Positions 33,568 to 51,532 of a stretch of DNA of 64,000 nt are shown here, one piece after another; the first letter of the stretch is position 1, and every line of letters starts with the position of its first letter. Both the position numbers and the translations under genes were made by a program. Below the pieces are notes generated by a model. That model was not told where the DNA came from, ran no database searches, and saw only the letters and a list, made by a program, of their open reading frames with translations. This stretch comes from Alphaproteobacteria bacterium (GTDB lineage: Bacteria; Pseudomonadota; Alphaproteobacteria; CACIAM-22H2): the NCBI GenBank assembly GCA_041690495.1, contig JAWLHE010000001.1, forward strand, positions 11,369-75,368. Direction: 5' to 3'.

Positions 33568-35480
33568 TCATTGCGCCGCCGCCGTGTTCGGCGCATCGGC
33601 GAACCAGAACGTGTCCGGATGATAGATGCCGAAGAATGCGCCGGGGTCGAAATTGTAGACGCCGTCGGTCGGCACGTTACGCAGCCGATTGGATACGACC
33701 ACCGGCTGCTTCACCGCGGCGATCAGCCCGATCGAATAGACCTGCTCGGCGTGGATGGCGAGCATCCTGTGCCACACGGCGCGGCGCTGCTCGGTCGTGG
33801 TGGCGTGCTGCCATTCCGCGTTCAGTTTCGCGAGCTCGATGGCGTGCGGGTCGTCCACCTTCTCGCCGCTGGCGCCGCCGGTTTCCGCATACTGCCCCCA
33901 TTTCGGCCATTGCAGGTGCTGCTGAGAGGTCGGCGCAAGCTCCGCGGGCGACATGTCGGCGGTCGGGATGCCGTTCTCCAGGCCGATCCAGATGGTCATG
34001 ACGCTCTCTCCGGAGAAGACCCGGTTGCGGAACATCTCGCGCTGCAGCGGACGCGAATACAGCTTGACGCCGACGTCGAGCCAGGAATCGTGGATCAGCT
34101 CGAGCACGTCGGTCTGCTCGGTCTCCTCTCCTGCTGTCTCGACGATGACCTCGAGCGGGCGGCCATCGGGCAGAAGCCGCACGCCGCGGCTGTCGCGTTT
34201 GGTGAGTCCGATCTCGTCGAGCAGCCGCTTTGCCTCCGCCCTGTCGAACTTCGCATAGGCGTCGCGATACTCGGGGCGATAGAGCGGGCTTTTGGGCAGG
34301 ACCGTGTTCTGCCCCTCGATCGCCAGGCCGAAATAGACGACCTGGTTGATTTCGTGCCGGTTGATCGCGAGCGACAGCGCACGGCGGAAGCGCACGTCGC
34401 GGTTGAGCTCGCGCCAAACGCGGTCGTTGGCGTTGAGGTTGGGATAGAGCGCCAGATGCGCCCCCTTGGCGGTATCCCAGAGATGCACCGAAAAGTCGTT
34501 GCGCTTCGCCGCCTGCCTCAGGAAGGTGAAATTGCTGAAAGAGAGATTGCGTGCCTGGATATCCGATTCGCCGGCGCCGGTCTTGGCGGGAATCAGCCGG
34601 CTGTCGGACACCGACGCGACGACGCGGTCGATATAAGGGAGCTGGCGCCCGTTGACGTCGATACGGTGGAAGTACGGGTTGCGCACGAACACGAAACGGT
34701 CGGCCGGCGGATGGGTCTGCGGCACCCATGGCTCGAGCGAGGGCAGATCCGGATTGTCGTTGCGGTACTGGTTGTCGAGGCGATTGTGTAGCTGCGCCCA
34801 CCCGCGCACATGGGCATTGCGAACCGCCTCCTCGAGTTTCGCGGTTTCGGCGTAGCGCTTGTGGAAGCGCTTCAGGTAATGCGCGGGCCGATAGATATAG
34901 AGCGGTGCCGCGCCGGCGAGCGCCTGCAGGAAATAGGGGTTGGGCGTTGGCCAGGCGTAGCGGACCGTGACCTCGTCGATGATCGTCACTTCGGGCGGCT
35001 TGCCGTCTATGATCAGGCTGCGCGGGGGCCCGACGGGCGACAGCTTCTTGTCGTTGGCGACGTCTTCCCAGTAGTAGCGGAAATCCTCGGTCGTGAAGGG
35101 ATGGCCGTCCGACCAGCGGTGGCCGCGGCGGAGCTTCAGGGTGAAGATGCGGTTTCCCGTGTTCTCGATGCTCTCGAGAATGTCGGGCTTGAGCTCGAGA
35201 TTGGCGTTGTAGCCGACCAGGCGCGCATAGCCGTAGACGACCATCATCCGGATGTCCTGGCTGCGGCCGATCAGGAGCCGTGCCTCGCCGCCGTGCCGCC
35301 CCGGCTCGGCGCCGGGCCGATCGGGTTTCAGCACGAGCGGCACCTCCGGCAGGCGTTGCTCGACCGGCGGCAATCTGCCTTCGCGGACATCCTTCTCCAG
35401 CGCGGGGCTGTCGATCAGCGCCGCTGCCGCCGGGCCGCCGAGCGTCGCGGCCAAAAGAATTGCGGCAAGCAGCGCGCGGA

Positions 35481-35484
<4 letters not shown>
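33568..35484 (-). CDS. yejA: extracellular solute-binding protein, family 5 (YejA-like)
   Basis: ATG at 35482-35484 (MIRALLAAILLAATLGGPAAA signal peptide); 638 aa SBP_bac_5 homolog; ATGA overlap with yejF. Confidence 0.85.
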
Positions 35485-37377
<1,893 letters not shown>

Positions 37378-37394
<17 letters not shown>

Positions 37395-37875
37395 TACCCA
37401 ATGCCCCGAAATTCGCTCGCGTGGCGTCCGACAGACTCAGCCCTGCGGCGCGCGCGGCTTCGGCAGCCTGGCGCGCGATTTCGTTGAAACCTTCGAGGGT
37501 GGAATCGAGGCGGATAGTCCCGCTATCGGGACCGCCATTCCCTTTGAGCATCAACTGCATCCACCCTCCCGTCCGGTCGAATCGCGTTGAGTAGTAATTA
37601 AGCCGGACGTCCTTCAACTTCTCCCACGCCAACCTAGCCCGCCATGGTGAAGAAAGCGATATGTCGTGCGCTGTGACGGTTATCACAGCTACGCTCCGCC
37701 GCCACGTCCGGATGCCGAAAATGGCGAAAAGGGTGGCCAGCGGCAACAGAACGAACTGCGCCGCTGACGTCGCGGGGATGGCGAGCGCGGGGCCGAGCGT
37801 GAGTGCGAGCCCGGCGCCGGCGCGGATGAAGTCGCCGGTCAGCGACTGCCGCGGATAGCGATGGTAGGCGGTCAT
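37378..37875 (-). CDS. hypothetical membrane protein (two N-terminal TM helices plus soluble domain)
   Basis: 165 aa; balanced composition; 4-bp overlap with the upstream deacetylase gene and 17-bp overlap with yejF. Confidence 0.5.
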
Positions 37876-38618
37876 GATCGGAACAGCGCGGCCGCGTCGA
37901 CCAGCCTTGCTGCGGGGTGGCGGCGCAGCGCCGCCAGGAACGCATCGACAAACGCCCAGGCGGCCTCATCGTGGGCGAGGTGGTGCGTCAGCAGGCCGGT
38001 CGGCTCGTCGGGATCGGCGTCGCCGATGCGGCGGGCGCGCAGATGAGCGACGGCCAAGCCGAGCGCAACGTCGCTGCCGCCGAAGGCGCGGGTGGTCCAG
38101 TTCATGACGTCGACATGGGTATTGACCCGGACGAGTCCGGGTACCGCGCGTCTGCGGGGGCCGTAGGTCGACAGGCCGATATAGCCGGCGGCGGGGAGGG
38201 CAGCGGCAAGCTCGCCTGCGATACGGTTATGCGGCGGAACCAGCGCGCGGGTCCAGCGGCCGAACAGCGCGTCCATGACGAGCTGGCCGCGTGCGAGCTC
38301 GCCGAGCATAAAGGACAGCGGCCGGTGCGGCCCGAGCTCGGCCTTCGAGGCGCCGACCGGCGCATGGTTCGCATGCATCCAGCCGTGCTGGACCACGGTC
38401 ACCAGAGGTCCTTCGATCCGCTTCCCGAGCTCGGGCTCGGCCCGGGCGGGGATCACCGCGATGGTGATCGGCGCGTCGTGCCTGCGGTGCAGCTCGAGCA
38501 GCCGGTCGAGGGCCGGCGTCGGCGCCGTTGCGTCGTCGTCGCGCCACCAGAAAGTTGCAGTCCGGCCCGATTCGCGCCAGCATTCGAGTTCGCCGGCCAG
38601 ATCCGCCCAGGAGCTCAA
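37872..38618 (-). CDS. polysaccharide deacetylase family protein
   Basis: 248 aa; N-terminal WWRDDD and His-rich motifs typical of this deacetylase family. Confidence 0.65.
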   Translation of the reverse strand: MSSWADLAGELECWRESGRTATFWWRDDDATAPTPALDRLLELHRRHDAPITIAVIPARAEPELGKRIEGPLVTVVQHGWMHANHAPVGASKAELGPHRPLSFMLGELARGQLVMDALFGRWTRALVPPHNRIAGELAAALPAAGYIGLSTYGPRRRAVPGLVRVNTHVDVMNWTTRAFGGSDVALGLAVAHLRARRIGDADPDEPTGLLTHHLAHDEAAWAFVDAFLAALRRHPAARLVDAAALFRS

Positions 38619-39772
38619 GCGCCGGCACCCCGCGTCGTCAGCCAGGTGCGGATCAGCCGGGCGGTTTCCGCCGCGCCGTCGCAGCGCAGCGCCCCGGACT
38701 CGGGCCGCTTCATCGCCGCCGCGCGGTCGATCGCCCCGGCGAGGGTCGCCGGCGTCAGTGTCGACTCCGCGACCATCTCGGCCCAGCCGCGATCGACCAG
38801 TGCGGCGGCGCGCACGGTCTGCTCGGTTTCCTGGCCGGCGGCGAACGGCACCAGTACGGCACGCGCGCGCGCGTTGAGAATGTCCATCACCGTATTATAG
38901 CCAGCCTGCGCCACCGCCACATGGCAGCGCGCGAGCAGGCCGGGAAAATCGGCACGCGCCGGCTCGACGATACAGCCCGCACTGGTGGCTGCGGCCAATT
39001 CCATCCGGATCGCGGCAGGAAGATTGGGGCCGACCAGCAGACGCCAGACGCGGCTGCCTTGCGCGCTTTGCAGCCGTGCGGCGAGCGCTGCGCGCAGCAG
39101 CGGCGCGCCGACGGCGCCACCGCCGACCGAGACGACGATCTCGCCTTCGCCATGGCCGGCCGGCGGCTCTGGTGCGGCGCCATTCGCAACATAGCCGGTA
39201 TAGACCACGCGGTCGGCAATGCGGTCCTCGGGAAAGCTCTTGGCCAAGGGGAGGAACCCCGGATCGCCGTGAACGAGCACGTGGTCGTACCAGGCGCGGA
39301 CCCGCTCGGCCATCTCGTAGAGCTTGCGTTCGTCGCTCTTCTGCGCGAGCACGTCGCGCACCGACGACAGGATCAGCGGCTGCGGCCGTTGCCGCCGCGC
39401 CGCGGCGATCAGCGGAATCAGCTCGAATGCCAGCATTCGCCGCCCGAGCGGGAACAGCTCGGTAATGACCACATCGGGACGCGTGGCAGCGAACCACGAT
39501 AGCAATGCCTCGCTGCGCGCCGCCCGCCAGGCGTCGTCGACCGGCCGACCCTCGGCATCGACCAGTTTCCTGAATGTCTCGTCCGTGGCCCGCATCGGCG
39601 GGAGCTGCACCAGTCGTGCGCCGCCGCAATCGAGGTCGGGGATCGGCGGGCCGCCTGAAACGAGCACGACGTCGAAGCCGTCGCGTGCCAGTGCCGCGGA
39701 GATCACCGCCGCCCGGCGCAGATGCCCGCTGCCGAGCAGATGCTGAACGTGAAAGAGGATGCGCGCGGTCAT
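38615..39772 (-). CDS. glycosyltransferase, GT28/MurG-like C-terminal domain (GT-B fold)
   Basis: ATG at 39770-39772 (MTARILFHVQHLLGSGHLRR…); C-terminal AGYNT motif; paralogous to the 42868..44094 gene. Confidence 0.75.
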   Translation of the reverse strand: MTARILFHVQHLLGSGHLRRAAVISAALARDGFDVVLVSGGPPIPDLDCGGARLVQLPPMRATDETFRKLVDAEGRPVDDAWRAARSEALLSWFAATRPDVVITELFPLGRRMLAFELIPLIAAARRQRPQPLILSSVRDVLAQKSDERKLYEMAERVRAWYDHVLVHGDPGFLPLAKSFPEDRIADRVVYTGYVANGAAPEPPAGHGEGEIVVSVGGGAVGAPLLRAALAARLQSAQGSRVWRLLVGPNLPAAIRMELAAATSAGCIVEPARADFPGLLARCHVAVAQAGYNTVMDILNARARAVLVPFAAGQETEQTVRAAALVDRGWAEMVAESTLTPATLAGAIDRAAAMKRPESGALRCDGAAETARLIRTWLTTRGAGA

Positions 39773-40356
39773 TGCACCTCGAGCGGCAGGTTGAGCTTCT
39801 CGACGCGCGGCACGCCTCCCCTGTCCAGCGCGAACAGGTGCAACGCGTACAGGTCGAGTCCTTCGGGCGGCTCGCCGGTCATATCCCAGTTGACGGCGCG
39901 CGCATAGATGGCGCGGATGACGCCGCGGTGGGTCACCGCCAGGGTCGGCCGAGCCGCGGCGCCGATCTCCCGCAGCAGCGGCGCAACGCGCGCCTGCACG
40001 TCGCGGGGACTCTCGCCGCCTGGCGGACGGAAATCCAGCCCGCGCGCCTCGTTCGTCGCCAGATCGGTGCCGTGCGCGTCGCGCAGCTCGGACAGCGTAC
40101 GGCCCTGGAACTCGCCCCAGTCCATCTCGATCAGGCGCGGATCGGGCGACACCACCAGGCGCAGCATTGCCGCGGTGTCGAGACAGCGCCGCAAGGGCGA
40201 GGACAGCGCGCGGAACCCGGCATAGGCGTCGGGGATGCGGCGCCGCAGGAGATCGGCGCGGCTCTCGTCGAGGAGCGGGACGTCGCTGCGCCCCTGCAGC
40301 CGGCCGGCCTTGTTCCACGCCGTCGGCGCGTGGCGGATCAGCGCCAGCAGGGTCAT
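39769..40356 (-). CDS. histidine phosphatase family protein
   Basis: RHG motif (LALIRHAPTAWN), second His motif (AVTHRGVIRA); ATGA overlaps on both sides. Confidence 0.8.
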   Translation of the reverse strand: MTLLALIRHAPTAWNKAGRLQGRSDVPLLDESRADLLRRRIPDAYAGFRALSSPLRRCLDTAAMLRLVVSPDPRLIEMDWGEFQGRTLSELRDAHGTDLATNEARGLDFRPPGGESPRDVQARVAPLLREIGAAARPTLAVTHRGVIRAIYARAVNWDMTGEPPEGLDLYALHLFALDRGGVPRVEKLNLPLEVQ

Positions 40357-41501
40357 GCGCGCTCCGCGGCCACGGCCTGCAGGATCCGGTCGAGCGCGGC
40401 GCCGGCGGAAACGACGTCATGCTCCGCCGCAACTTTTGCCATCGCCGCGGCACCATAATCGAGACGCCGCTCGGGTGCAGCGAGCAGCGTGTCAACCGCC
40501 GCGGCGAATGCCGCCGCATCGCCCGGCGGCGTCAGCAGACCGGTTCGCTCGTGGACGATCAGCTCGGGCACACCGCCGCTTCTGCCCGCGACCGCCGGCA
40601 ATCCCGCCGCCTGGGCCTCGAGAATGGCCATTCCGTAGGCCTCGTTGATTGCCGGCCAGACCAGGAGATCGGCTGCCGCGAGAAGGCCGGGCAGCCGCCC
40701 GGGATCGACCGCGCCGACGTGGACGACGCGATCGCGGACCGGCGCCAGTGCCGCCTCGACCTCCCGCCGCGCCGGTCCATCGCCGATGGTCAGGAGCCGC
40801 CAGGGTCTCGCGCGCAAGACGTCCAGGGCTGCGCCGAGCACGCGGTACGAGGCCAGCTTGTCGCCAGCACGCATCATCGCGACGGCGACGAGCCAAGGCT
40901 CGTCGGACGGGAGATGGAAGCGCCCGGCGATTTCGCGTCGCTGGTCGGCGCGACCTTGCGCCGCCGTGGCGAATGCAGCCGATTCGAGGAATGGCTTCAG
41001 GTGGCGCAGACGCGCAGCGTCGCGCAGATGCGGGATGACGCCGTCATCGTCGGCGGGATTGAGCGAGATTACGGCGTCGGCGCGCTTGAGCGCCGCAAGC
41101 GTCGCTTCGTGACCGAGCGACCACGGGCCGCCAGCGCGCTTTGCTGCGACCGATGCCTCGACGACGACGTACGGAATGCCGAGCCGGGCGGCGACGCGTG
41201 GCCCGATCCAGTCCGGCGCCTTGTGATAGAGGTGATAGGTCAGCCATGCGCGGGGACGCCGCGCCGGCGTACGGGCGCCGAGCTGCTCGATCAGCCGCGC
41301 CGCGAGACGTCCACCGAGCTCCGCCAGACGGTGCTGGCGTTCCGTATCGCCGCCGCCGTCATAACTGCGCAGCCGTGCGGCGAGCTCTACCTCGTGTCCG
41401 GCGCGGCTCAGCGCCAGCCGAAGGAGCTGTGCCACGCGCCGGTCGCCGGACGGGACCGGATGATCGGGCGGTTTGAGCGGGGCGTAGAAGGCGATGCGCA
41501 T
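40353..41501 (-). CDS. glycosyltransferase family 4 (GT-B, retaining)
   Basis: 382 aa; C-terminal E-x7-E region (…INEAYGMAILEAQAAGLPAVAGRSGGVPELI…). Confidence 0.85.
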   Translation of the reverse strand: MRIAFYAPLKPPDHPVPSGDRRVAQLLRLALSRAGHEVELAARLRSYDGGGDTERQHRLAELGGRLAARLIEQLGARTPARRPRAWLTYHLYHKAPDWIGPRVAARLGIPYVVVEASVAAKRAGGPWSLGHEATLAALKRADAVISLNPADDDGVIPHLRDAARLRHLKPFLESAAFATAAQGRADQRREIAGRFHLPSDEPWLVAVAMMRAGDKLASYRVLGAALDVLRARPWRLLTIGDGPARREVEAALAPVRDRVVHVGAVDPGRLPGLLAAADLLVWPAINEAYGMAILEAQAAGLPAVAGRSGGVPELIVHERTGLLTPPGDAAAFAAAVDTLLAAPERRLDYGAAAMAKVAAEHDVVSAGAALDRILQAVAAERA

Positions 41502-41519
41502 GCGGTCGGCGAAGGTCGG

Positions 41520-42815
41520 TTACCTCGCCGCTTCGCGCGCCGGCGCGCGTCCGTCTGCAATCGTCGAAGACAACAGAAGGGCGGCAATGCGGCCGATGCC
41601 GCGCTCGAGCGGGAAGTCGCGGCGCACCCGCGCCTCGCCGGCGGCCGCGAGGCGCGCGCGCAGGGCGGGGTCGCTGACAAGGCGTGTGATTGCCGCTGCC
41701 ATGGCGGCGGGGTCGCCCGGCGGAACCAGTGTGCCGGTGACGCCGTCCGCGACGAGCTCGGGTATCGCCGAGACGGCGGTCGCCGCCACCGGGCAGCGCT
41801 GGCTCAACGCCTCGAGCAGGACGTTGGGCAGGCCGTCGCGATCGCCGTCGCCGCTGATCCTGCTTGCCAGAACGAACAGGTCGGCCTCGCGATAGGCCGC
41901 GCGCACCACGTCCTCGGTCTGGGCGCCGCGCCACGCGATGCGGTCTGCGAGGCCGCGCCGCTCCGCCTCGCGCCGGAGATCGGGGAGCAGCGGTCCGCCG
42001 CCGATATGGATCATCCGCCAGTGCAGGTCGCGCGGCAGCAGGGCCAGAGCCGCGAGCAGGTCGCCGTAGCCCTTTTTCGGCACCGCGCGCCCGACCGACA
42101 GCAGGATGACCGGATCGGCCGGCGCCGTTCCGTCGCGGGGCGGGCGCGATGCGTCGTGCGGTGGGAAACGCGCGGCATCGATGCCGTGGTAGACGAGCTC
42201 GACTTTCGCCGGCGCGGCAGCCAATTCGGCGAGGTGCTCGCGTCCCGCACGCGTGCAGGTCACCGCCCATGCCGCGTCGTCGAGCTTCTCGCGTTTCTCC
42301 CAGCCGGGCGTGGTCCAGATGTCCTTGGCGTGCGCCGACACGCTCCACGTCAATCCGGCGAGAAGCGCGGCATAGCGCGCGACCGATGCAGGCGTGTGCA
42401 GAAAATGCGCGTAATAGTGCACGACATCCGGGCTGCGCTCCGCCGCCAGCACCAGCGCCTGGCCGAAGCGCCGGATGCGATTGGGCGTCGGATCGCGAGC
42501 GAGGTCCTTGAGCCAGGCGGCGCGTGCGCGCGCATAGCCGGGCAGACGCCGCACCGCACGCCAGGCGCGCCAGACCCGCGCCGGCTCGCGCCACAGATAT
42601 TCGGGCAGATACGTCAGCGCGGCGCCGACTGACCGGTTGAGCGGGTGCACGCGCTTGTCGGTAGGATGGCGCAGCGAATAGATGCGCAGGTGCACGCCGC
42701 TGCGCTCGAGCGCGCGCAACTCCTGGGCGATGAAGGTTTCCGACAGGCGCGGCCAGCCCTTGACGACCACGCCGATTGCGGCGACGGATGGCTGGCTCGT
42801 CGGCTCGTGAGGCAT
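41520..42815 (-). CDS. glycosyltransferase family 4
   Basis: ATG at 42813-42815 (MPHEPTS…); about 431 aa; GT4 C-terminal domain (…GLPNVLLEALSQRCPVAATAVSAIPELV…). Confidence 0.85.
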   Translation of the reverse strand: MPHEPTSQPSVAAIGVVVKGWPRLSETFIAQELRALERSGVHLRIYSLRHPTDKRVHPLNRSVGAALTYLPEYLWREPARVWRAWRAVRRLPGYARARAAWLKDLARDPTPNRIRRFGQALVLAAERSPDVVHYYAHFLHTPASVARYAALLAGLTWSVSAHAKDIWTTPGWEKREKLDDAAWAVTCTRAGREHLAELAAAPAKVELVYHGIDAARFPPHDASRPPRDGTAPADPVILLSVGRAVPKKGYGDLLAALALLPRDLHWRMIHIGGGPLLPDLRREAERRGLADRIAWRGAQTEDVVRAAYREADLFVLASRISGDGDRDGLPNVLLEALSQRCPVAATAVSAIPELVADGVTGTLVPPGDPAAMAAAITRLVSDPALRARLAAAGEARVRRDFPLERGIGRIAALLLSSTIADGRAPAREAAR

Positions 42816-42867
42816 GAAGCAATCTAGCGTCGAAGCGGCGCCCGTCGGAAGCAGGATGCGCAGACCT

Positions 42868-44094
42868 TCAGCCGTGATCGGCGAGGGCGAGACGGCGTGC
42901 AGCCGGCTGGACGACGCGGTCGGGCAGCCAGCGGTTGACCAGGCGCCCGACATTCTCGAAACCGTCGAGCAGACCGGGCACCACCATTTCCGACGGGCGG
43001 GGCTGGCCGGGCAGGCGGCGCAGCGCGTCCGCCATCAACCGCGCGTCGCGCTTGCCGTCGTCCTGCAGCATGCGGACGAGGCCGAGATCCTGGGCACGGC
43101 TGGCGCGGATGTACTGTTCGAGCCGGGGTGCCGTGCGCGGCACGATGATCGCGCGCTTGTTGAACGAAAGGATCTCGCAGAAGGTGTTGTAGCCGCCCAT
43201 CGCCACCACGCCGGCGGCGCGGTCCATCAGCTCCTCGAGATGCGTGTCGAAGGTGATCGCCTCGACGTGCCGCAGACGCCGCGCGCGCTCGATGAAATCG
43301 GTCTGCAGCTCGGGCTGCATGAACGGTCCAAGGACCAGCACCGCACGGTGCGGCAGGTTGCGGTCGTATTCGTAGGCGCGCAGCACCCAGTCGACCAGCG
43401 TCTCGCCGTCGCCGCCGCCGCCGGTCGTCACCAGGACATAGGGCTCCTCGGGATTCTCGTGCCGGCGCGTGCGCTGCGTGGCGACCGGCACCGTGCGCGG
43501 CAGATAGCCGGTGTAGCTGATCTTGCGCTTGACCGAGCGAGGGACCGCGATGCCCGCAAGCGGATCGCAGATCTGCGGCAGCCCGTAGATCCAGATGTCG
43601 TCGTATAGATCGCGCAGCGCCGGCAGCACGTTCTTACGTTTCCATTCCGGCTCCAGCAGCACCGGGTCGTCCATTACGTCGCGCAGGCCCAGCACCAGCG
43701 GCACGCCCATCGACTTGAGCATCACCAGCGTGTCGTGGACCTCGCCGCGGAAGCCGAGGGGTTCCTTGTCGACCAGGAACAGGTCGGGGCCGAACGCCTC
43801 CGCCGTATGGCGGATGATCGAGGAGCGGATGCCGATCGTCTGCTGGATGTCGATGTGCAGGTTGAGCGAGGTGTATTCGCCGTTGCGCAGCTTGATGACG
43901 CCGGGCACGCGCACGAAATCGACGCGGGTCTTGAAGTCGAAGCTGCCGATGATCGGCGAGCCCGATAGGATCAGGACCGAGAGATCCTTGTTGCGTTCGA
44001 CCAGTGCATGCGCGAGGGCGCGGCAGCGGCGCAGATGGCCGAGGCCGAGCGTATCGTGGCTGTAGATGAGAATCCGGGAGCCGCCGCTTTTCAT
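42868..44094 (-). CDS. glycosyltransferase, GT28/MurG-like C-terminal domain (paralog)
   Basis: Start MKSGGSRILIYSHDTLGLGHLRR… (paralogous N-terminus to the 38615 gene); MGGYNT motif; about 408 aa. Confidence 0.75.
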   Translation of the reverse strand: MKSGGSRILIYSHDTLGLGHLRRCRALAHALVERNKDLSVLILSGSPIIGSFDFKTRVDFVRVPGVIKLRNGEYTSLNLHIDIQQTIGIRSSIIRHTAEAFGPDLFLVDKEPLGFRGEVHDTLVMLKSMGVPLVLGLRDVMDDPVLLEPEWKRKNVLPALRDLYDDIWIYGLPQICDPLAGIAVPRSVKRKISYTGYLPRTVPVATQRTRRHENPEEPYVLVTTGGGGDGETLVDWVLRAYEYDRNLPHRAVLVLGPFMQPELQTDFIERARRLRHVEAITFDTHLEELMDRAAGVVAMGGYNTFCEILSFNKRAIIVPRTAPRLEQYIRASRAQDLGLVRMLQDDGKRDARLMADALRRLPGQPRPSEMVVPGLLDGFENVGRLVNRWLPDRVVQPAARRLALADHG

Positions 44095-44290
44095 GCGCTG
44101 TGCTATCTCGCTCAAGGGCTGGCTCTCCGTCGCTCCCCAGCGGAGGACTATGGCATAAGGCCGCGGGGGCGAAAAAGTCACCTTTTTTATTGACTGGGGC
44201 TACAAAGTGCGCGGATTTTGGATCGATTTTACAATTCAGCGCAAGGGCTTAATGATTCGGAGCATTATTGGAGGGCCTTACCGCGGGCTC
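44095..44290. promoter_or_regulatory. AT-rich divergent promoter island between the glycosylation operon and the PCuAC-like/ABC gene set
   Basis: Local AT-rich stretch (…gaaaaagtcaccttttttaTTGACTggggctacaaagtgcgcggattttggatcgattttacaattcag…) in a 65% GC background. Confidence 0.45.
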
Positions 44291-44764
44291 CGCGGCCGGC
44301 TCCCGTATGCGGCGGGCGGCCGGTCCGGGATGCCGCTGGGGCCGCTCTGCGGGATCGCGCTTGCCGTGCTGATCGGCGGGCCCGGCGAAGCTCACGACCT
44401 GCGCCACGGCGACCTGCATGTCGGTCACGCCTGGACACGCCCGGCCGCGGCCGGCGGTGCCGCGGAAGTCTATTTCCCGATCGTCAACCGTGGGGCGCGC
44501 GCGGATCGGCTGACCGAGGTGCGCACGTCGATCGCGGCGGAAGCCGGCTTGGCGGAAACGCGAGACGGAACTGCGGAACGCCTCGATGCGATTGCGCTGC
44601 CCGCCGGGCGGCCGGTGGCGCTGCGTCCGGGCCGGTTCCATGTCCGTCTTGAGGGGCTGGCGCGCAGGCTGGAGGCCGGCGATCAATTCATCGTGACCCT
44701 GATTTTCGCGGCGGCAAGCCCGGCCGATGTCACCGTGATCGTCGAATCGGCGGCCGGCCACTGA
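44207..44764 (+). CDS. PCu(A)C/DUF461-like periplasmic protein lacking the Met/His copper ligands
   Basis: Pattern H.W.RP…Y..I.N.G…L……HVRLEGL…GD.F.VTL.F collinear with copper chaperone PCuAC, but H(M)-Mx/MxM ligand positions are V/L/R/E; start may be an internal Met (MIRS… or MPLGPL… signal). Confidence 0.45.
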   Translation: MRGFWIDFTIQRKGLMIRSIIGGPYRGLRGRLPYAAGGRSGMPLGPLCGIALAVLIGGPGEAHDLRHGDLHVGHAWTRPAAAGGAAEVYFPIVNRGARADRLTEVRTSIAAEAGLAETRDGTAERLDAIALPAGRPVALRPGRFHVRLEGLARRLEAGDQFIVTLIFAAASPADVTVIVESAAGH

Positions 44765-44886: not shown

Positions 44887-47523
44887 ATGGAATCGAACCT
44901 CTATCGCTTCGTTCTGAAATACGCGCCGCGCGAAACCGCATGGGTCTGCACGCTTACCGTGCTGTCGATGCCGTTCTACTACCTTTCGCTCGAGGTGCCG
45001 AAGACGATCGTCAACAAGGCGCTGCTGCAGAAGGACATTACGTTTCCGACGGCCATTCTTGGTGTGGAGGTAGGCCGCGTCGCCTACCTGTTCCTGCTCT
45101 GCGCCGCATTCTTCTTCCTGTTCGTCACCAATACCGGCCTCAAGCAATACATCAATACGCTGAAGGGCAGGCTGGGCGAGCGGTTGCTGCGGCGATTGCG
45201 CTATGACCTGGTCTCGCGCGTCCTTCGTTTTCCGCTGCCCCATTTCCGCAAGGTTTCGGCCGGCGAGATCATCCCGATGGTGACATCGGAAGTCGAGCCG
45301 CTCGGCGGCTTTATGGGCGACGCGATTGCGCAGCCGCTGATCCAGGGCGGCACGCTTCTGGTGATCATCACCTTTCTGTTCATGCAGAATCCCTGGATCG
45401 GCCTGGCCGCGATCTCGCTCTATCCGCTGCAGGCCTACCTGATCCCCAAGCTGCAACGTCGCGTGAACCAGCTCGGCAAGGAGCGCGTACGTGCGGTGCG
45501 CAAGCTGTCGGAGCGCATCGGCGAGGCCATCCAGGGCGTCCAGGAAGTCCACGCTCACGGCACCACGACCTGGGAGCGTGCCGACTTCTCCGACCGGCTC
45601 GGGCTGATCTTCAAGATCAGGTTCGAGATCTACCAGCGCAAATCGTTCGTCAAGTTTCTGAACAATTTTCTCAACCAGATGGTGCCGCTGCTGTTTTATT
45701 CGCTCGGCGGCTATCTGGTGATCCGGGGCGACCTGTCCGTCGGCGCGCTCACAGCGGCACTGGCGGCGCACAAGGACATGTCGGCGCCATGGAAAGAGCT
45801 GCTCGACTATTACCAGCAGAGTCAGGATTCGAAGATCAAGTACGAGCAGGTCACCGAGCAGTTCAAGCCGGAGAACATGTTCGACGAGACGCTGGAGCAG
45901 CCGATCGATGAGCCGCCGGGCCGGCTTGAAGGCGAGATCGAGGCGACCAATCTCGCTCTCTACGAGGACGCCCAGACCAGGCTGCTTGAAAGCACCAGCT
46001 TCAGAATCGCGCCTGGAGAGAAGGTGGCGCTCGTCGGCCCTTCAGGCGGCGGCAAGGAGGCGGCTGCCATGCTGCTCGCGCGTCTCTATCAGCCGAGCGC
46101 CGGCCGCATTGCTGTCGGCGAGCGGGATCTGCGGACGATTCCGAGTGCGGTGCTCGGCGCGCGCATCGGCTATGTCGGACCGACCGCCTATCTCTTTTCC
46201 GCCAGCGTGCGGGACAACCTGAGCTATGGCCTGCGCCAGCGGCTGGTGAAGGCCCGCGAGGATGCCCAGTTGCGCCAGAAGCAGCGCTGGCTCGCCGAGG
46301 CGGCGCGCGCGGGCAACCTCGCGCTCGACACCCAGGCCGAATGGATCGACTGGCGCGGCGCGGACCTTTCTGGCGATCAGGGTCCGACCGAGGCGATGAT
46401 CGAAGCGCTGTCGCTCGTCGGCCTCTCGGAGGATCTCTACCACTTCGGTCTGCGCGGGACGATCGATCCGAAGAAGCGCAGCGACATCGCGGATTGCATC
46501 GTAAAGGCGCGCGCGGCGCTGCAGGAGCGGATCAGGGATCCCGAGCTGGCGCCGCTGGTCGAGGTGTTCGATCCGGGGCGCTACAACAACAATGCGACGA
46601 TGGCGGAGAACCTGCTGTTCGGAACGCCGGTCAGCGCCGCCTTCGACATCGATCGCCTCTCCGAGAACGCGTATGTGCTTGGCGTGCTCGACAAGGTCGG
46701 CCTCACCGATGATCTGGTCGCCATCGGCCGCGAGGTCGCGACCACCATGATCGAGATCTTCGCCGACCTGCCGCCCGGGCACGAGTTCTTCGAGCAGTTC
46801 AGCTTCATCTCGTCGGACGAGCTTCCGGAATTCCAGGCGCTGCTCGGCCGTGTCGACGGCAAGGGCATGACCCCGGCGGACCGCGCGCGCCTGCTCACGC
46901 TGCCTTTCAAGCTGATAGAGGCGCGCCACCGTCTGGGTCTGATCGACGACGCCCTCAAGGCGCGAATCCTCGAAGCGCGGCACGTCTTCCGCGAGGATCT
47001 GCCCGAAACGACACGCTCGGGTATCGAGTTCTTCGATCCGGCGGCCTACAATGCCGCAACGTCGCTGCAGGACAATATCCTGTTCGGGAAGCTCGCCTAT
47101 GGGCAAGCACGGGCCGCCCAACGGGTCGGCAAGCTCATCGTCGAGATCCTGGACGAGCTCCATCTCCGCCCAGCGGTGCTCGAAGTCGGGCTCGAATACC
47201 AGGTCGGCGTGGGCGGCGCGCGCCTGAACCAGGGCCAGCGCCAGAAGCTGGCGATCGCGCGATCTCTGCTCAAGCGCCCGGATATCATGATTCTCAACGA
47301 GGCCACGACGATCTTTGATTCGACGACGCAGGCGCACATCATGGATGGCATTTTCAAGGCGTGCGAAGGCCGCACCGTGATCTGGGCGCTGCATACGCCG
47401 GCGATGGCCAAGCACTTCGATCGTGTCCTCGTTTTTGCGGACAACCGCCTTGCAGAGTCCGGTGATTTCGGCGAGCTCGGGCGCCCGGGCACGCTGTTCA
47501 CCGAGCTGCTCGCGGCGGCATGA
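44887..47523 (+). CDS. ABC exporter (type I TMD + NBD) with degenerate ATPase motifs and triplicated helical-subdomain segment
   Basis: 878 aa; 6-TM exporter domain; Walker A GPSGGGKE, signature LNQGQRQK, Walker B IMILNEAT, H-loop IWALH; three tandem copies of the Q-loop/ENIxFG segment (46169-46231, 46560-46623, 47026-47088). Confidence 0.85.
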   Translation: MESNLYRFVLKYAPRETAWVCTLTVLSMPFYYLSLEVPKTIVNKALLQKDITFPTAILGVEVGRVAYLFLLCAAFFFLFVTNTGLKQYINTLKGRLGERLLRRLRYDLVSRVLRFPLPHFRKVSAGEIIPMVTSEVEPLGGFMGDAIAQPLIQGGTLLVIITFLFMQNPWIGLAAISLYPLQAYLIPKLQRRVNQLGKERVRAVRKLSERIGEAIQGVQEVHAHGTTTWERADFSDRLGLIFKIRFEIYQRKSFVKFLNNFLNQMVPLLFYSLGGYLVIRGDLSVGALTAALAAHKDMSAPWKELLDYYQQSQDSKIKYEQVTEQFKPENMFDETLEQPIDEPPGRLEGEIEATNLALYEDAQTRLLESTSFRIAPGEKVALVGPSGGGKEAAAMLLARLYQPSAGRIAVGERDLRTIPSAVLGARIGYVGPTAYLFSASVRDNLSYGLRQRLVKAREDAQLRQKQRWLAEAARAGNLALDTQAEWIDWRGADLSGDQGPTEAMIEALSLVGLSEDLYHFGLRGTIDPKKRSDIADCIVKARAALQERIRDPELAPLVEVFDPGRYNNNATMAENLLFGTPVSAAFDIDRLSENAYVLGVLDKVGLTDDLVAIGREVATTMIEIFADLPPGHEFFEQFSFISSDELPEFQALLGRVDGKGMTPADRARLLTLPFKLIEARHRLGLIDDALKARILEARHVFREDLPETTRSGIEFFDPAAYNAATSLQDNILFGKLAYGQARAAQRVGKLIVEILDELHLRPAVLEVGLEYQVGVGGARLNQGQRQKLAIARSLLKRPDIMILNEATTIFDSTTQAHIMDGIFKACEGRTVIWALHTPAMAKHFDRVLVFADNRLAESGDFGELGRPGTLFTELLAAA

Positions 47524-47544: not shown

Positions 47545-48003
47545 ATGTCGATCAAGGAAGAAGTCGAGATTCTCCGCAACATTCCGCTTTTCGCAAAGCT
47601 CGAGCCGGCGAAACTGAAACTGCTGGCTTTCACCAGCCAAAGACTGACTTTCGAGGCCGGCCAGCCGCTGTTCCAGCAGGGCGATCCCGGCGATGCCGCC
47701 TACATCGTCCTGGACGGAGAGGCGGAGGTCATGATTCACACGGCGCAGGGACCGGTTCGGGTCGCGCGGGTCGGGCGCCACGCGATCATCGGCGAGGTGG
47801 CCATACTGTGCGAGGTGCCGCGCACCGCGACGGTGATCGCCAGCTCGCAGCTCACTACATTGCGCATCGACAAGGATTTGTTCTTCCGGCTGGTCAACGA
47901 GTTCCCGCAGATGGCGGTCGAGATCATGCGCGAGCTCGCGCACCGGCTCGAGAAGACCAACGAGCAGCTCCGCGTTGCCGTGACGCGCGCCGGAAACGCC
48001 TGA
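47545..48003 (+). CDS. stand-alone cyclic nucleotide-binding domain protein
   Basis: 152 aa; cNMP-binding beta-roll (…FEAGQPLFQQGDPGDAAYIVLDGEAEV…GEVAIL…RTATV…); no DNA-binding domain; SD ggagga precedes the ATG. Confidence 0.85.
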   Translation: MSIKEEVEILRNIPLFAKLEPAKLKLLAFTSQRLTFEAGQPLFQQGDPGDAAYIVLDGEAEVMIHTAQGPVRVARVGRHAIIGEVAILCEVPRTATVIASSQLTTLRIDKDLFFRLVNEFPQMAVEIMRELAHRLEKTNEQLRVAVTRAGNA

Positions 48004-48600: not shown

Positions 48601-49488
48601 TTACGGCTTCAGATCGAGCAGCACGGGAACGTGGTCCGACGGCGTCGGCCAGTCGCGCGCCTCCTTGAGAATGTGCACGCCCATGACGCCGCCGGCGAGC
48701 GCCGGCGTCACCCAGGCGTGATCGAGCCGCCGGCCGCGGTCGGACCGGCGCCAGTCCTGATTGCGATAGCTCCACCAAGTGTAAATCCGCTGCGGCTCGG
48801 GGAACAGCTCGCGTGTCGCATCGACCCAGTGATGCGCGTCCTGGAACGCCGCCAGCAGCTCGACCTCGACGGGCGTGTGGCTCACCACCGTCAGCAGCTG
48901 CTTGTGCGACCACACGTCGTTCTCGCGCGGCGCCACATTGAGGTCGCCGACCAGGATGCGCTTGCGGCCGTTGGGCTGCCTGGCCCAGTATGCGCCAAGC
49001 TCGCGCAGGAACTGGAGCTTGTGCGCGAATTTCGGGTTTACCGCGGGATCGGGAACGTCGCCGCCGGCGGGCACATAGACATTGTGCAGCTCGATTCCGC
49101 CGGGGAGCTCCACCTGGCAATGGCGCGAATCGTCCTTCTCGCACCAGCGCTCGCGGCCGCTGCGCGCCAGGCTGTGCCGTGACAGGATCGCGACGCCGTT
49201 ATAGCCCTTCATGCCGTAGAAGCACTGGTGCGGGTACCCCGCCTTGGCCAGGGCATCCGCCGGGAAATGCTGGTTCTCGGTCTTGGTTTCCTGCAGGCAG
49301 ATCACGTCGGGCTGCGCTGCCTTGATCAGCTTCTTGATCAGCGGCAGCCGCAGGCGCACCGAGTTGATATTCCAGGTTGCGACGCGCAGGCCCGATGCGC
49401 CGGGCGCCCGAGGAATTTTCCTGGCGAGGTAAGGCGTGGGTATGGCGGCTTCTTTCTTCGCCGGTCGCGCGGCGGCACGGTTCGACAT
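48601..49488 (-). CDS. xthA: exodeoxyribonuclease III
   Basis: EEP-fold nuclease motifs (LRVATWNINSV, DVICLQETK, VGDLN, …SDHVPV); the N-terminal 30 aa extension may not be translated. Confidence 0.9.
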   Translation of the reverse strand: MSNRAAARPAKKEAAIPTPYLARKIPRAPGASGLRVATWNINSVRLRLPLIKKLIKAAQPDVICLQETKTENQHFPADALAKAGYPHQCFYGMKGYNGVAILSRHSLARSGRERWCEKDDSRHCQVELPGGIELHNVYVPAGGDVPDPAVNPKFAHKLQFLRELGAYWARQPNGRKRILVGDLNVAPRENDVWSHKQLLTVVSHTPVEVELLAAFQDAHHWVDATRELFPEPQRIYTWWSYRNQDWRRSDRGRRLDHAWVTPALAGGVMGVHILKEARDWPTPSDHVPVLLDLKP

Positions 49489-49593
49489 CCGGATGGAAAT
49501 TTCTCAAAGCATAAAACGGCAGCGCGTTGTTTTGCCGTGCCGCCGTCGGCACGGTCAAGCCCGCCGCGAGAAATCCGGGTGCGCAAATGCAAA

Positions 49594-49640
49594 GCGCCCG
49601 GTCGGGGGGAAGACCGGGCGCTCGGAAGCTCCTCTCGGAG
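49594..49640 (-). terminator. hairpin terminator downstream of the hydrolase/GATase/LolA-like operon
   Basis: Perfect 11-bp inverted repeat AGCGCCCGGTC-GGGGGGAA-GACCGGGCGCT; on the minus strand it is followed by TTTGCATTTG. Confidence 0.55.
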
Positions 49641-49776
49641 CCCGGCGGACGTCAGGGGAGCCGTCCACCGAACGGTCGACCGGAGCCGACCGCCTCTTGT
49701 CCTAAGAAATGGTAGCGAGCCGCGTCCGTTCAAGACCCTTCGCAGCGGCGCTCAGGATCCAAAAAGCGCAAGTCGC

Positions 49777-50757
49777 TCAGCTTGATGCAAGCTGCTCACG
49801 CACCTGTGAAAGGGCCCGGTCCGGTGCCTCGAACACCATCATATGGCCGTGCTCGCGCCAGATCTCGAACGCGGCATTGCTGAGTCGACGTGCGGCAAAG
49901 CCGATCGCCGCCGTGACCCAGTCGCGCTCTGCTCCAGCCTCGGGATCGCCGCTGACGAGCCGCAGCGGCGGCGCGGCGGGGAATTGCGGAAGCAGCCGGA
50001 AGGTCGAGTCGGGCGTATCCGTCGCGAAGATCGCGAACATTGCGGCCTCTATCTCGGGCCGGCAGGCGAGCTCGACGCCGCCTTCTTCGACCGGACGCAC
50101 CGTCGCCTGCGCATGCGCCGCCAGCATCGGCGGGGCGAAGCTGGTGAAGGGCCGCCGCCGTTGCAGATAGGCCGCATATTCCTCGACGCTGTCCCAGGAC
50201 CGTCGCCGCACCCGCGTGCGCACCACCAGCGCCGCGTTCTTCTCGACCGCCTCGGCATGGACCGGGATATCCGCACTCGGAAACAGCGCGGGCTCGAACA
50301 GCAGCAGGTTGCGGAAGGGGAGCGCCGCGAAACGGTCGGGAAAGCGGCAGCCCAGCCGCAGCAGCGCCACCGCGTTCAGCGAGTGCGCCACGTAATGAAT
50401 CGGCCCGCGGGTCCGCGAGGCGACCGTCTCCGCGATGGCAGCGAGATCGAGCGCGAACCGGTCGGGATGGTAGGTCGGCACGGCCAGTTCGTCCCGGACC
50501 GGTGCATCGGGCGGCGGTGCCTGCGATCCGCCATGGCCGCGCGCGTCGAAGGCGAACACCTCGGCGTCGGCCGCGAGCTGTTCGAGCAGCGGCAGATAGC
50601 ATCCGGCGGCGAAGCCGCCGCAATGGCCCCACAGCACGACCGGGCCGTGCGTGCGCGAGCCGCGCAGGCGGTAGAGATTGAGCCCGACGCCGCCCTGACC
50701 TCCGACCGGGATCAGCTCTGCCTTGTCGGACGGGATCGAAACGAAGCGTCGTGTCAT
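49777..50757 (-). CDS. alpha/beta hydrolase
   Basis: ATG at 50755-50757 (MTRRFVSIP…); HGGG-like region (LWGHCGGFAAG), nucleophile elbow AHSLNA; starts 1 nt after the stop of the upstream gene. Confidence 0.75.
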   Translation of the reverse strand: MTRRFVSIPSDKAELIPVGGQGGVGLNLYRLRGSRTHGPVVLWGHCGGFAAGCYLPLLEQLAADAEVFAFDARGHGGSQAPPPDAPVRDELAVPTYHPDRFALDLAAIAETVASRTRGPIHYVAHSLNAVALLRLGCRFPDRFAALPFRNLLLFEPALFPSADIPVHAEAVEKNAALVVRTRVRRRSWDSVEEYAAYLQRRRPFTSFAPPMLAAHAQATVRPVEEGGVELACRPEIEAAMFAIFATDTPDSTFRLLPQFPAAPPLRLVSGDPEAGAERDWVTAAIGFAARRLSNAAFEIWREHGHMMVFEAPDRALSQVREQLASS

Positions 50758-50758
50758 C

Positions 50759-51532
50759 TCATGCGACGTCGGCGGCCGCAGTCCGGCGCAGCGCACGGGC
50801 GCGGGCGGCGTCGCCGAATGCGGCAAAGATCGCGCGCGCCAGCGGATCATTCGCGATGTGCCATTCGGGATGCCACTGCACGCCGAGCGCGAACGTCTTG
50901 GCCGCCATGACGCGCACCGCCTCGACGATCCCGTCGGGCGAGGTCGCCTCGACCGCGAGGCCTGGCGCAAGACGGTCGATGGCCTGGGCATGCAGCGAGT
51001 TCACCGTCGCCTCGCCGGCGCCCGCCAGCCGGCCGAGCAGTCCGCCCGGCGCAAGTCGCACGGTATGGGCATAGCCGTAGCGTTCCTCGTTGTTCGGCAG
51101 GTCGCGGGCGCGGTGGTCGCGGCGGCCCGGCAGCTCATGCACGTGCTGGTGCAGCGTGCCGCCAAGCGCCACGTTCAGCTCCTGGTGGCCGCGACAGATC
51201 GCCAGCAGCGGCAGCCCGGCCTCGATTGCCAGCCGGATCAGCGGCAGGGTTGTCGCGTCGCGTGCCGCATCGTGCAGCGTACCGGCGGGCGAATCGCCGC
51301 CTCCGTAGCGGTGCGGCTCCACATTCGACGGGCTGCCGGTCAGAAGCAGGCCGTCGAGCCGGGCGATCAGGGCGGCGAAATCGGTCTGCTCGCCCAGGGC
51401 GGGTACGATCAGCGGCACGCCGCCGGCCCCGACGACAACCGCGGAGACATACTGCGTCGCCACGCTGTGGAAGCGGTGACGCTCGCCCGCGCGCACGCAT
51501 GCCGTCAGTCCGATCAACGGCGTCGCGCTCAT
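50759..51532 (-). CDS. gamma-glutamyl-gamma-aminobutyrate hydrolase family protein (class I glutamine amidotransferase-like, PuuD)
   Basis: 257 aa; catalytic Cys context (LLAICRGHQELNVALGG), His/Glu pair near the C-terminus (HPEW). Confidence 0.85.
   Translation of the reverse strand: MSATPLIGLTACVRAGERHRFHSVATQYVSAVVVGAGGVPLIVPALGEQTDFAALIARLDGLLLTGSPSNVEPHRYGGGDSPAGTLHDAARDATTLPLIRLAIEAGLPLLAICRGHQELNVALGGTLHQHVHELPGRRDHRARDLPNNEERYGYAHTVRLAPGGLLGRLAGAGEATVNSLHAQAIDRLAPGLAVEATSPDGIVEAVRVMAAKTFALGVQWHPEWHIANDPLARAIFAAFGDAARARALRRTAAADVA

Follow-up and report, generated by a model that had tools for sequence, protein, structure and literature searches.

A widespread alphaproteobacterial family of ABC-exporter-fold proteins combining a degenerate, internally triplicated nucleotide-binding domain with a cyclic-nucleotide-binding partner

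[quoted passage not shown] Heterodimeric type IV exporters, such as TM287/288, TmrAB, BmrCD and MsRv1273c/72c, are encoded by gene pairs and combine one consensus site with an intact Walker A motif and NBDs of normal size. Degenerate sites are known from heterodimers of this kind or from full-length proteins, which likewise retain one consensus site and have Walker A intact (PMC7756269). Here we describe a gene on the forward strand of the window, the whole 64,000-nucleotide stretch of contig JAWLHE010000001.1 that was analysed, at positions 44887 to 47523. In contrast to heterodimeric exporters, this gene stands alone, and its product is degenerate on both NBD faces, has lost both the Walker A serine or threonine and the Walker B aspartate, and carries approximately 290 extra residues in the NBD. 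It belongs to a large and conserved alphaproteobacterial family, as yet without a name, whose members are half-size membrane proteins with the ABC exporter fold and are coupled to a cyclic-nucleotide-binding (CNB) domain. The family constitutes a new architectural, and probably mechanistic, variant of ABC exporters.

Several described systems share individual features with this family. CFTR (ABCC7) and SUR1/2 (ABCC8/9) offer a parallel for an exporter fold that now serves as a gated channel or a regulator, with a degenerate site and NBD-linked regulatory insertions, and CFTR is under the control of a cyclic AMP (cAMP) pathway, although indirectly, through phosphorylation of its R domain by protein kinase A (PKA). 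Both come from eukaryotes as full-length proteins in which one ATP site is competent, whereas the window family has its CNB domain attached or adjacent and no consensus site, and we treat the likeness as a functional analogy only and not as membership. A CNB domain coupled to a type IV ABC exporter is also found in HetC of Nostoc and in TIGR03896 'bacteriocin-type transport-associated' proteins encoded beside NHLM exporters; that of HetC is N-terminal, needed in vivo and binds ppGpp in vitro (PMC10986499). The exporters of the HetC and TIGR03896 type are C39-peptidase PCATs whose ATPase residues are canonical and essential and whose CNB domain is N-terminal, whereas the window family lacks a peptidase domain (Pfam did not find Peptidase_C39 in the window protein), has a degenerate, triplicated NBD and carries the CNB domain at the C-terminus or in a downstream gene.

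By sequence, the closest named families are MsbA and NdvA (ChvA), with an NdvA structure among the fold matches and a glycosyltransferase neighbourhood as a further likeness, and P-glycoprotein, TmrAB, TM287/288 and PCAT1 are also among the closest by sequence and fold. The window protein nevertheless differs from MsbA and NdvA in its non-canonical ATP motifs, its insert and its CNB partner, and its best NCBIfam match (TIGR02203 MsbA, 6e-62) reached 209.9 bits, where the curated cut-off is 602; each of the 25 NCBIfam families listed for it stayed below its own cut-off. SbmA/BacA proteins have an exporter-type membrane fold that works without ATP hydrolysis, but they are devoid of an NBD, whereas the window family retains a large and conserved pseudo-NBD. 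No family-specific description was found in Pfam, NCBIfam, the PDB or the literature searched, and no Pfam or NCBIfam model spans the insert, in agreement with an earlier sequence-only reading of the window that had pointed to no described family of this architecture.

The gene encodes 878 amino acids (aa) from an ATG start and has the codon-position GC content of a real gene (0.66/0.41/0.84, GC3 0.84) in a sequence of approximately 68% GC. Its parts are as follows, with motifs placed by PDB alignments and helices taken from an AlphaFold2 (AF2) model.

44887..47523, + strand: ABC-exporter-fold gene, 878 aa, with a degenerate enlarged NBD (open reading frame and translation; Pfam ABC_membrane and ABC_tran; AF2; Foldseek)
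44887..45876, + strand: transmembrane domain, aa 1-330, six long helices (ABC_membrane at aa 65-292; DSSP helices of the AF2 model)
45904..46170, + strand: N-terminal part of the NBD core, aa 340-428, with A-loop Tyr359 and Walker A (ABCB4 NBD alignment; motif census)
46036-46059, + strand: Walker A GPSGGGKE, aa 384-391
aa 432, + strand: Pro432 at the Q-loop glutamine position
47224-47238, + strand: signature LNQGQ, aa 780-784
47278..47520, + strand: C-terminal part of the NBD core, aa 798-878, with Walker B, D-loop and H-loop (PDB alignment; motif census)
47284-47301, + strand: Walker B IMILNE, aa 800-805
47383-47394, + strand: H-loop WALH, aa 833-836 (His836)

Pfam placed ABC_membrane (PF00664) at aa 65-292 (2.5e-22) and split the ABC_tran match, while phmmer searches of PDB sequences placed aa 343-458 on the N-terminal and aa 768-871 on the C-terminal half of the ABCB1 and ABCB4 NBDs, the approximately 300 residues in between having no counterpart in these proteins. 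Together, these searches bear out a type I exporter membrane domain joined to a single NBD, as first read from the letters. The membrane domain has the type IV (type I exporter) fold, with six helices and long intracellular extensions. The full-length AF2 model reached a pLDDT of 86.9 and, in Foldseek, matched type IV ABC exporters only, among them TmrAB, TM287/288 and PCAT1 at target-normalised TM-scores of 0.55-0.63. The sole stretch of the model with pLDDT <50, aa 163-176 (positions 45373-45414, FLFMQNPWIGLAAI), forms the turn between membrane helices 3 and 4 and is nonetheless well conserved in sequence.

The ATP-site motifs proved as divergent as the sequence-only reading had stated. Where GxxGxGK[ST] is required for Walker A the protein has GPSGGGKE, where Walker B requires four hydrophobic residues and an aspartate followed by glutamate it has IMILNE, the LSGGQ signature is LNQGQ and the Q-loop glutamine is absent. 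The accompanying statement that only the H-loop is canonical was too narrow; His836 is present, but Walker A Lys390, catalytic Glu805, D-loop Asp811 and A-loop Tyr359 are likewise retained.

We followed these positions through a subfamily of 107 aligned members and a wider family of 67 full-length divergent representatives. Within the subfamily, the census was as follows.

Walker A lysine position: K 82, R 25
Walker A serine/threonine position: E 76, D 30, A 1, never S or T (acidic in 106 of 107)
Walker B aspartate position: N 104, S 2, D 1
Catalytic glutamate position: E 72, D 26, Q 7, N 2 (Glu or Asp in 98 of 107)
Signature: L-[SAT]-x-x-Q, with two glycines in only about 8-10 of 107
Q-loop position: P 65, Q 31
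H-loop position: His in 53 of 107
A-loop position: mostly V, Q or A, aromatic residues rare

D-loop Asp811 was found in 101 and signature Gln784 in 102 subfamily members. Across the wider family every motif position varies: the Walker A lysine is kept by fewer than half (25 of 67 by tally), almost any residue occupies the serine/threonine position, Asn or Asp stands in place of the Walker B aspartate and the H-loop shows no conservation. Global degeneration of the NBD, inferred earlier from a single protein, thus holds across the family. The proposed swap of charge between the two Mg-coordinating residues is fixed in the subfamily, but the two positions show no significant coupling family-wide, with acid and Asn paired in 18 wider-family members, acid and Asp in 4, Ser/Thr and Asn in 8 and Ser/Thr and Asp in 8 (Fisher p = 0.075, uncorrected for kinship). 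A strict compensatory Glu/Asn exchange throughout the family was therefore rejected. In the subfamily of the window protein, the only place where the pair appears fixed, it may matter, for example as a carboxylate at the Mg position or as a self-occupied P-loop.

The extra residues of the NBD stem from a segment that occurs three times in tandem.

46159..46551, + strand: repeat unit A, aa 425-555, with the Q-loop-like strand YVGPTAYLFSASVRDNLSYG and a helical, signature-helix-like tail ending in the conserved Arg542 (hhalign; PDB alignments)
46552..47022, + strand: repeat unit B, aa 556-712, with VFDPGRYNNNATMAENLLFG followed by an expanded helical module that, taken alone, folds with confidence
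47023..47277, + strand: repeat unit C, aa 713-797, with FFDPAAYNAATSLQDNILFG, LNQGQ and the signature helix with Arg792 (NCBIfam and PDB alignments; motif census)

The repeat cores lie at nucleotides 46171-46230, 46564-46623 and 47029-47088, confirming the three copies reported before and moving their coordinates by 0-4 nt. NCBIfam and PDB alignments run from approximately aa 712-724 through the signature and Walker B, and unit C is the canonical helical subdomain, continuous with Walker B; PDB alignments make unit A continuous with the Walker A half, that is, with the canonical N-terminal half. Judged from sequence profiles, each repeat comprises the Q-loop strand, the helical subdomain and the signature helix, and the NBD is enlarged by approximately 290 residues.

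Relatedness of the units was supported at several levels. Against 300 shuffles, Smith-Waterman scores reached z = 9.8 (B-C) and z = 3.6 (A-C), and hhalign comparison of the 20-30-residue cores, with 118 homologues, gave 2e-11 for B-C, 3e-5 for A-C and 9e-4 for A-B. With 284 family sequences, whole units aligned collinearly at 2e-14 over 77 columns (B-C), 1.9e-8 over 86 columns that take in the whole of unit C with its signature helix (A-C) and 3.8e-6 (A-B), which upholds the triplication of a Q-loop-to-signature segment. The helical tails without the core motif still aligned at 6.8e-6 (A-C), 3e-4 (A-B) and 1e-3 (B-C). In the AF2 model, each unit presents the same order of elements, namely a short strand, a short 'ENLxFG' helix, an 'xxLxxVGL' helix and a second helix, followed by a signature-like turn and a long helix with a near-invariant arginine. 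These arginines, Arg542, Arg698 and Arg792, each have a conservation of 0.99 in the 67 divergent representatives, but their equivalence is tentative because hhalign of B against C places the signature-helix equivalent of unit B at approximately aa 663-674 and not at Arg698. Foldseek did not corroborate the likeness of the repeats (best E 0.27), and overall the profile-profile evidence for the repeats is strong and the structural evidence moderate. Self-BLASTP of the protein returned no internal match because the repeats are too diverged for pairwise BLAST, Pfam recognised nothing in isolated insert segments except ABC_tran on the C-terminal piece, and an insert profile matched PDB sequences only along the Q-loop stretch of copy A. 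A Walker-B-like interpretation of the 'VEVFDP' strands was discarded, since the following ATxxENLLFG is the post-Q-loop motif and the units are collinear with unit C.

Copies B and C are similar at the nucleotide level, as noted previously (64% of 72 nt identical, where the background is 30 +/- 6%), and share 10 of 24 residues, which fits a conserved peptide motif combined with a strong GC3 codon bias. The age first attached to this similarity did not stand: all three cores are kept in relatives only 27-50% identical to the query, and the triplication is therefore ancient and a recent duplication was rejected.

The family is large. An initial protein search recovered more than 120 clusters at 53-89% identity, all of approximately 865-907 aa (about 880), and alignments of 18 and of 107 members showed the insert and the non-canonical motifs throughout. 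A scan of contigs from one genome per species yielded at least 589 confirmed stretches, the best 80 of which lay on 80 different alphaproteobacterial contigs, and a profile of the insert alone, searched against 1.84 billion representatives, matched 1210 clusters built at the 50% identity level with E<=1e-3, of which 451 reached E<=1e-30. The hosts in the contig scan include Azospirillum soli, A. aestuarii, A. halopraeferens, Thalassobaculum litoreum, Nisaea, Oceanibacterium, Sneathiella, Tagaea, Stellaceae and Geminicoccaceae, and many cultured Alphaproteobacteria, members of Azospirillum, Thalassobaculum, Nisaea and Sneathiella among them, have it as a single-copy gene in conserved synteny. 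Among the 67 representatives, the membrane domain carried 2.45 bits per column, repeat cores B and C 2.82 and 2.48 and the signature helix 2.63, compared with 1.52 for the Walker B/D-loop/H-loop half, the least conserved region of the family. Selection therefore appears to act on the membrane domain and the repeats rather than on catalysis.

The strongest functional clue, overlooked in the sequence-only reading, is the gene immediately downstream.

47545..48003, + strand: stand-alone CNB protein, 152 aa (Pfam cNMP_binding, PF00027, 2.7e-20; PDB; synteny)

It starts 21 nt past the ABC stop codon behind a GGAGG ribosome-binding site. The product scored 72.5 bits against the PF00027 gathering threshold of 27.5 and resembles the PKA/PKG-type CNB domains of the PDB, with a GE...RTA cassette (GEVAILCEVPRTA), while its match to TIGR03896 was weak (47.7 against a cut-off of 161.05). 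Across 83 related loci, a CNB gene lay directly downstream on the same strand in 81 of the 82 with room for one, and the phosphate-binding cassette GE...R[ST]A was canonical in 71 of 82. In other members the two are one protein: each of the nine long representatives that were tested, at 1032-1206 aa, has the CNB domain as a C-terminal fusion, around one-third of full-length representatives measure 1013-1066 aa, and many more fused ABC-CNB clusters were found, including a set of approximately 1180 aa with CNB and GGDEF domains. Single ABC-CNB-GGDEF chains of approximately 1180-1206 aa comprise P0178 (1206 aa, the sole GGDEF carrier among the nine tested), P0303-P0308, P0321, P0370 and L086:8001-11537, and their domain content hints that the module can output cyclic di-GMP (c-di-GMP). 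Adjacency and repeated fusion therefore argue for a physical and functional coupling of the ABC and CNB components.

On the other side of the ABC gene, and divergent from it, lies a group of glycosyltransferase (GT) genes, which were assigned with Pfam and NCBIfam.

38615..44181, - strand: divergent glycosyltransferase cluster
42868-44181, - strand: GT28-like glycosyltransferase
41520-42953, - strand: GT4
40353-41501, - strand: GT4
39769-40356, - strand: histidine phosphatase (His_Phos_1)
38615-39766, - strand: MurG-like GT28

The GT28-like gene is divergent from and adjacent to the ABC gene in 69 of 76 loci, followed in most by GT4, and a second, MurG-like GT28 gene usually lies approximately 3.3-5.7 kb upstream of the ABC gene. 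The GT28-like protein is 62-80% identical across loci and has no sequence relatives in the PDB. Among the genes of the cluster in the window, no flippase or exporter (Wzx), polymerase (Wzy) or initiating phosphoglycosyltransferase was recognised. A 248-aa protein without a family match also belongs to the conserved cluster, which then spans 37872-44181 on the - strand.

Taking the fold, triplication, family-scale motif decay, conservation pattern, CNB coupling and GT synteny together, we favour, with moderate confidence, a pseudo-ATPase ABC-fold translocator or gate that would be controlled by a cyclic nucleotide through its CNB partner. The protein would act as a homodimer, like other half-transporters. 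No second half-transporter (ABC_membrane) gene was found in the window or at any inspected relative locus, and a homodimer with two degenerate sites is therefore the simplest arrangement; the earlier proposal that such a homodimer would have both sites degenerate, favouring a non-hydrolytic or regulatory role, is supported on this point. Its two composite nucleotide sites would not be catalytic engines and would at most keep, in a structural role, a nucleotide or a network of salt bridges. Binding of cAMP or cyclic GMP (cGMP) to the CNB partner, docked on the enlarged helical region of the pseudo-NBD, would set the inward/outward or open/closed state of the conserved membrane domain. In the clade of the window protein, this switch might serve the adjacent GT cluster, passing or gating a glycoconjugate or glycoside across the inner membrane. 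A bolder version, which we put forward only tentatively, is a channel or facilitator gated by cyclic nucleotide and independent of ATP hydrolysis, a direct-binding analogue of CFTR in which the triplicated subdomains would form the platform for CNB docking and transmission, and cAMP or cGMP would replace the ATP power stroke.

The combination is unusual in that all ATP-site motifs drift while the membrane domain is strongly constrained, that there are three copies of the helical subdomain and that an obligatory cyclic-nucleotide sensor goes with them. If the favoured model is true, the family would show how a second messenger can drive the ABC fold, or simply gate it, and would provide a tractable bacterial model of CFTR/SUR-like repurposing. 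The four glycosyltransferases next to the gene form an uncharacterised cluster, and the ABC family may thus mark an unrecognised envelope or glycoconjugate pathway under the control of cyclic nucleotide monophosphates (cNMPs).

Several observations weigh against the gated pseudo-ATPase model, for which we infer the ligand, oligomeric state, ATP binding, substrate and mechanism alike. The GT cluster is absent beside the fused-type relatives, and the link to glycans may therefore be clade-specific and is only suggestive. At three of four loci of these relatives, the gene directly after the ABC-CNB fusion encodes an HGSNAT/DUF1624-type membrane acyltransferase, followed by a phytochelatin-synthase-like gene. 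The members fused to GGDEF hint at a signalling output rather than transport. A few distant members (P0217, P0240) retain the canonical GKS/T and DE motifs, and Lys/Arg390, Glu/Asp391, Asn804, Glu/Asp805 and Asp811 are strongly conserved in the subfamily, a pattern that suggests a pocket still active in some way, possibly in binding Mg-nucleotide or in slow hydrolysis.

That pocket conservation is also what speaks for an atypical but still ATP-driven exporter, in which, through the proposed charge swap, the Walker A Glu/Asp would itself hold Mg2+ instead of Ser/Thr, the Walker B Asn would replace the hydrogen bond of the aspartate, and the CNB protein would only tune the rate; the five positions and Gln784 are near-invariant in the subfamily while neighbouring positions vary. 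We regard such an exporter as unlikely, however, given that the Q-loop glutamine, H-loop histidine, signature glycines and A-loop aromatic residue are unconserved even within the subfamily, where the Walker A lysine has also become arginine in 25 of 107 members. The wider family usually lacks this lysine and pairs the acid with Asn at only p = 0.075, and the half bearing Walker B and the H-loop is its least conserved region.

Equally doubtful, in our view, is a SUR-like membrane sensor or regulator without translocation, relaying a membrane or periplasmic cue together with cNMP to the glycosyltransferases or to a diguanylate cyclase. It would account for the C-terminal CNB-GGDEF fusions of several clusters, for the loss of catalytic motifs and for genomic partners that differ by clade, being the GT cluster in one and the HGSNAT-like gene in the other. 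Set against it are the high conservation of the membrane domain with its full six-helix exporter fold, which fits a translocation path without proving one, and the fact that no other recognisable flippase or exporter gene accompanies the GT cluster in the window.

That the protein is the degenerate half of a heterodimer, with a canonical partner elsewhere in the genome and one consensus site as in TM287/288 or TmrAB, is very improbable. Heterodimeric type IV exporters with degenerate sites are familiar (PMC7756269), but neither the window nor the inspected loci contain an adjacent ABC_membrane gene and the best 80 of the at least 589 stretches all fall on different contigs. Moreover, both the Walker face (Walker A, Walker B and Q-loop) and the signature face of the NBD are degenerate, so that a heterodimer formed with any partner would be impaired at both of its composite sites.

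Scarcely credible are a decaying pseudogene, to which the non-consensus motifs might point but which is effectively ruled out by full-length intact orthologues in hundreds of genomes that keep the insert and non-canonical motifs, by synteny kept across orders and by a typical coding GC3 of 0.84, and a cNMP-triggered anti-phage effector of the Pycsar/CBASS type, which is rejected because PADLOC matched the CNB protein to Pycsar TIR effectors and cyclase (E 1e-16 to 6e-9) along its generic CNB domain only, no cyclase is among the neighbours listed at the inspected loci, and the conservation is vertical and housekeeping-like (synteny across 80 genomes), unlike that of a defence island.

The surroundings of fused-type relatives were recorded at individual loci. 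HGSNAT_cat genes come directly after fused ABC-CNB genes at L084:11143-12237, L085:11056-12225 and L087:8084-9244, that of L087 overlapping the ABC stop codon by 4 nt, and one or two convergent phytochelatin-synthase-like genes follow. In addition, L087:1807-2553, 2.4 kb upstream of the fused gene, encodes a metallo-beta-lactamase-fold protein with a Pfam match to Anti-Pycsar Apyc1. Apyc1 is a cyclic-nucleotide phosphodiesterase, and this gene, seen at one locus only, is a possible local cNMP-degrading enzyme.

Three further features of the window flank the genes described above.

44207-44764, + strand: PCuAC copper-chaperone-domain open reading frame, 185 aa (1.9e-19)
48601-51532, - strand, downstream: exodeoxyribonuclease III (xth equivalog, 5e-52), an alpha/beta hydrolase and a C26 gamma-glutamyl peptidase
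33568-37394, - strand: part of an Opp/Dpp-type peptide importer, unrelated to the ABC-exporter finding

The PCuAC reading frame occupies the 705-nt gap between the GT28-like and ABC genes, which in most related loci measures only approximately 120-300 nt; at L002, the same gap holds a PCuAC/LpqE-like gene, but in the opposite orientation. In many related loci, xth and C26 genes are again found 0.5-6 kb from the ABC gene, probably as plain synteny. The Opp/Dpp part contains a 637-aa fused double ATPase (two ABC_tran domains and oligo_HPY) adjoining a family-5 solute-binding protein.

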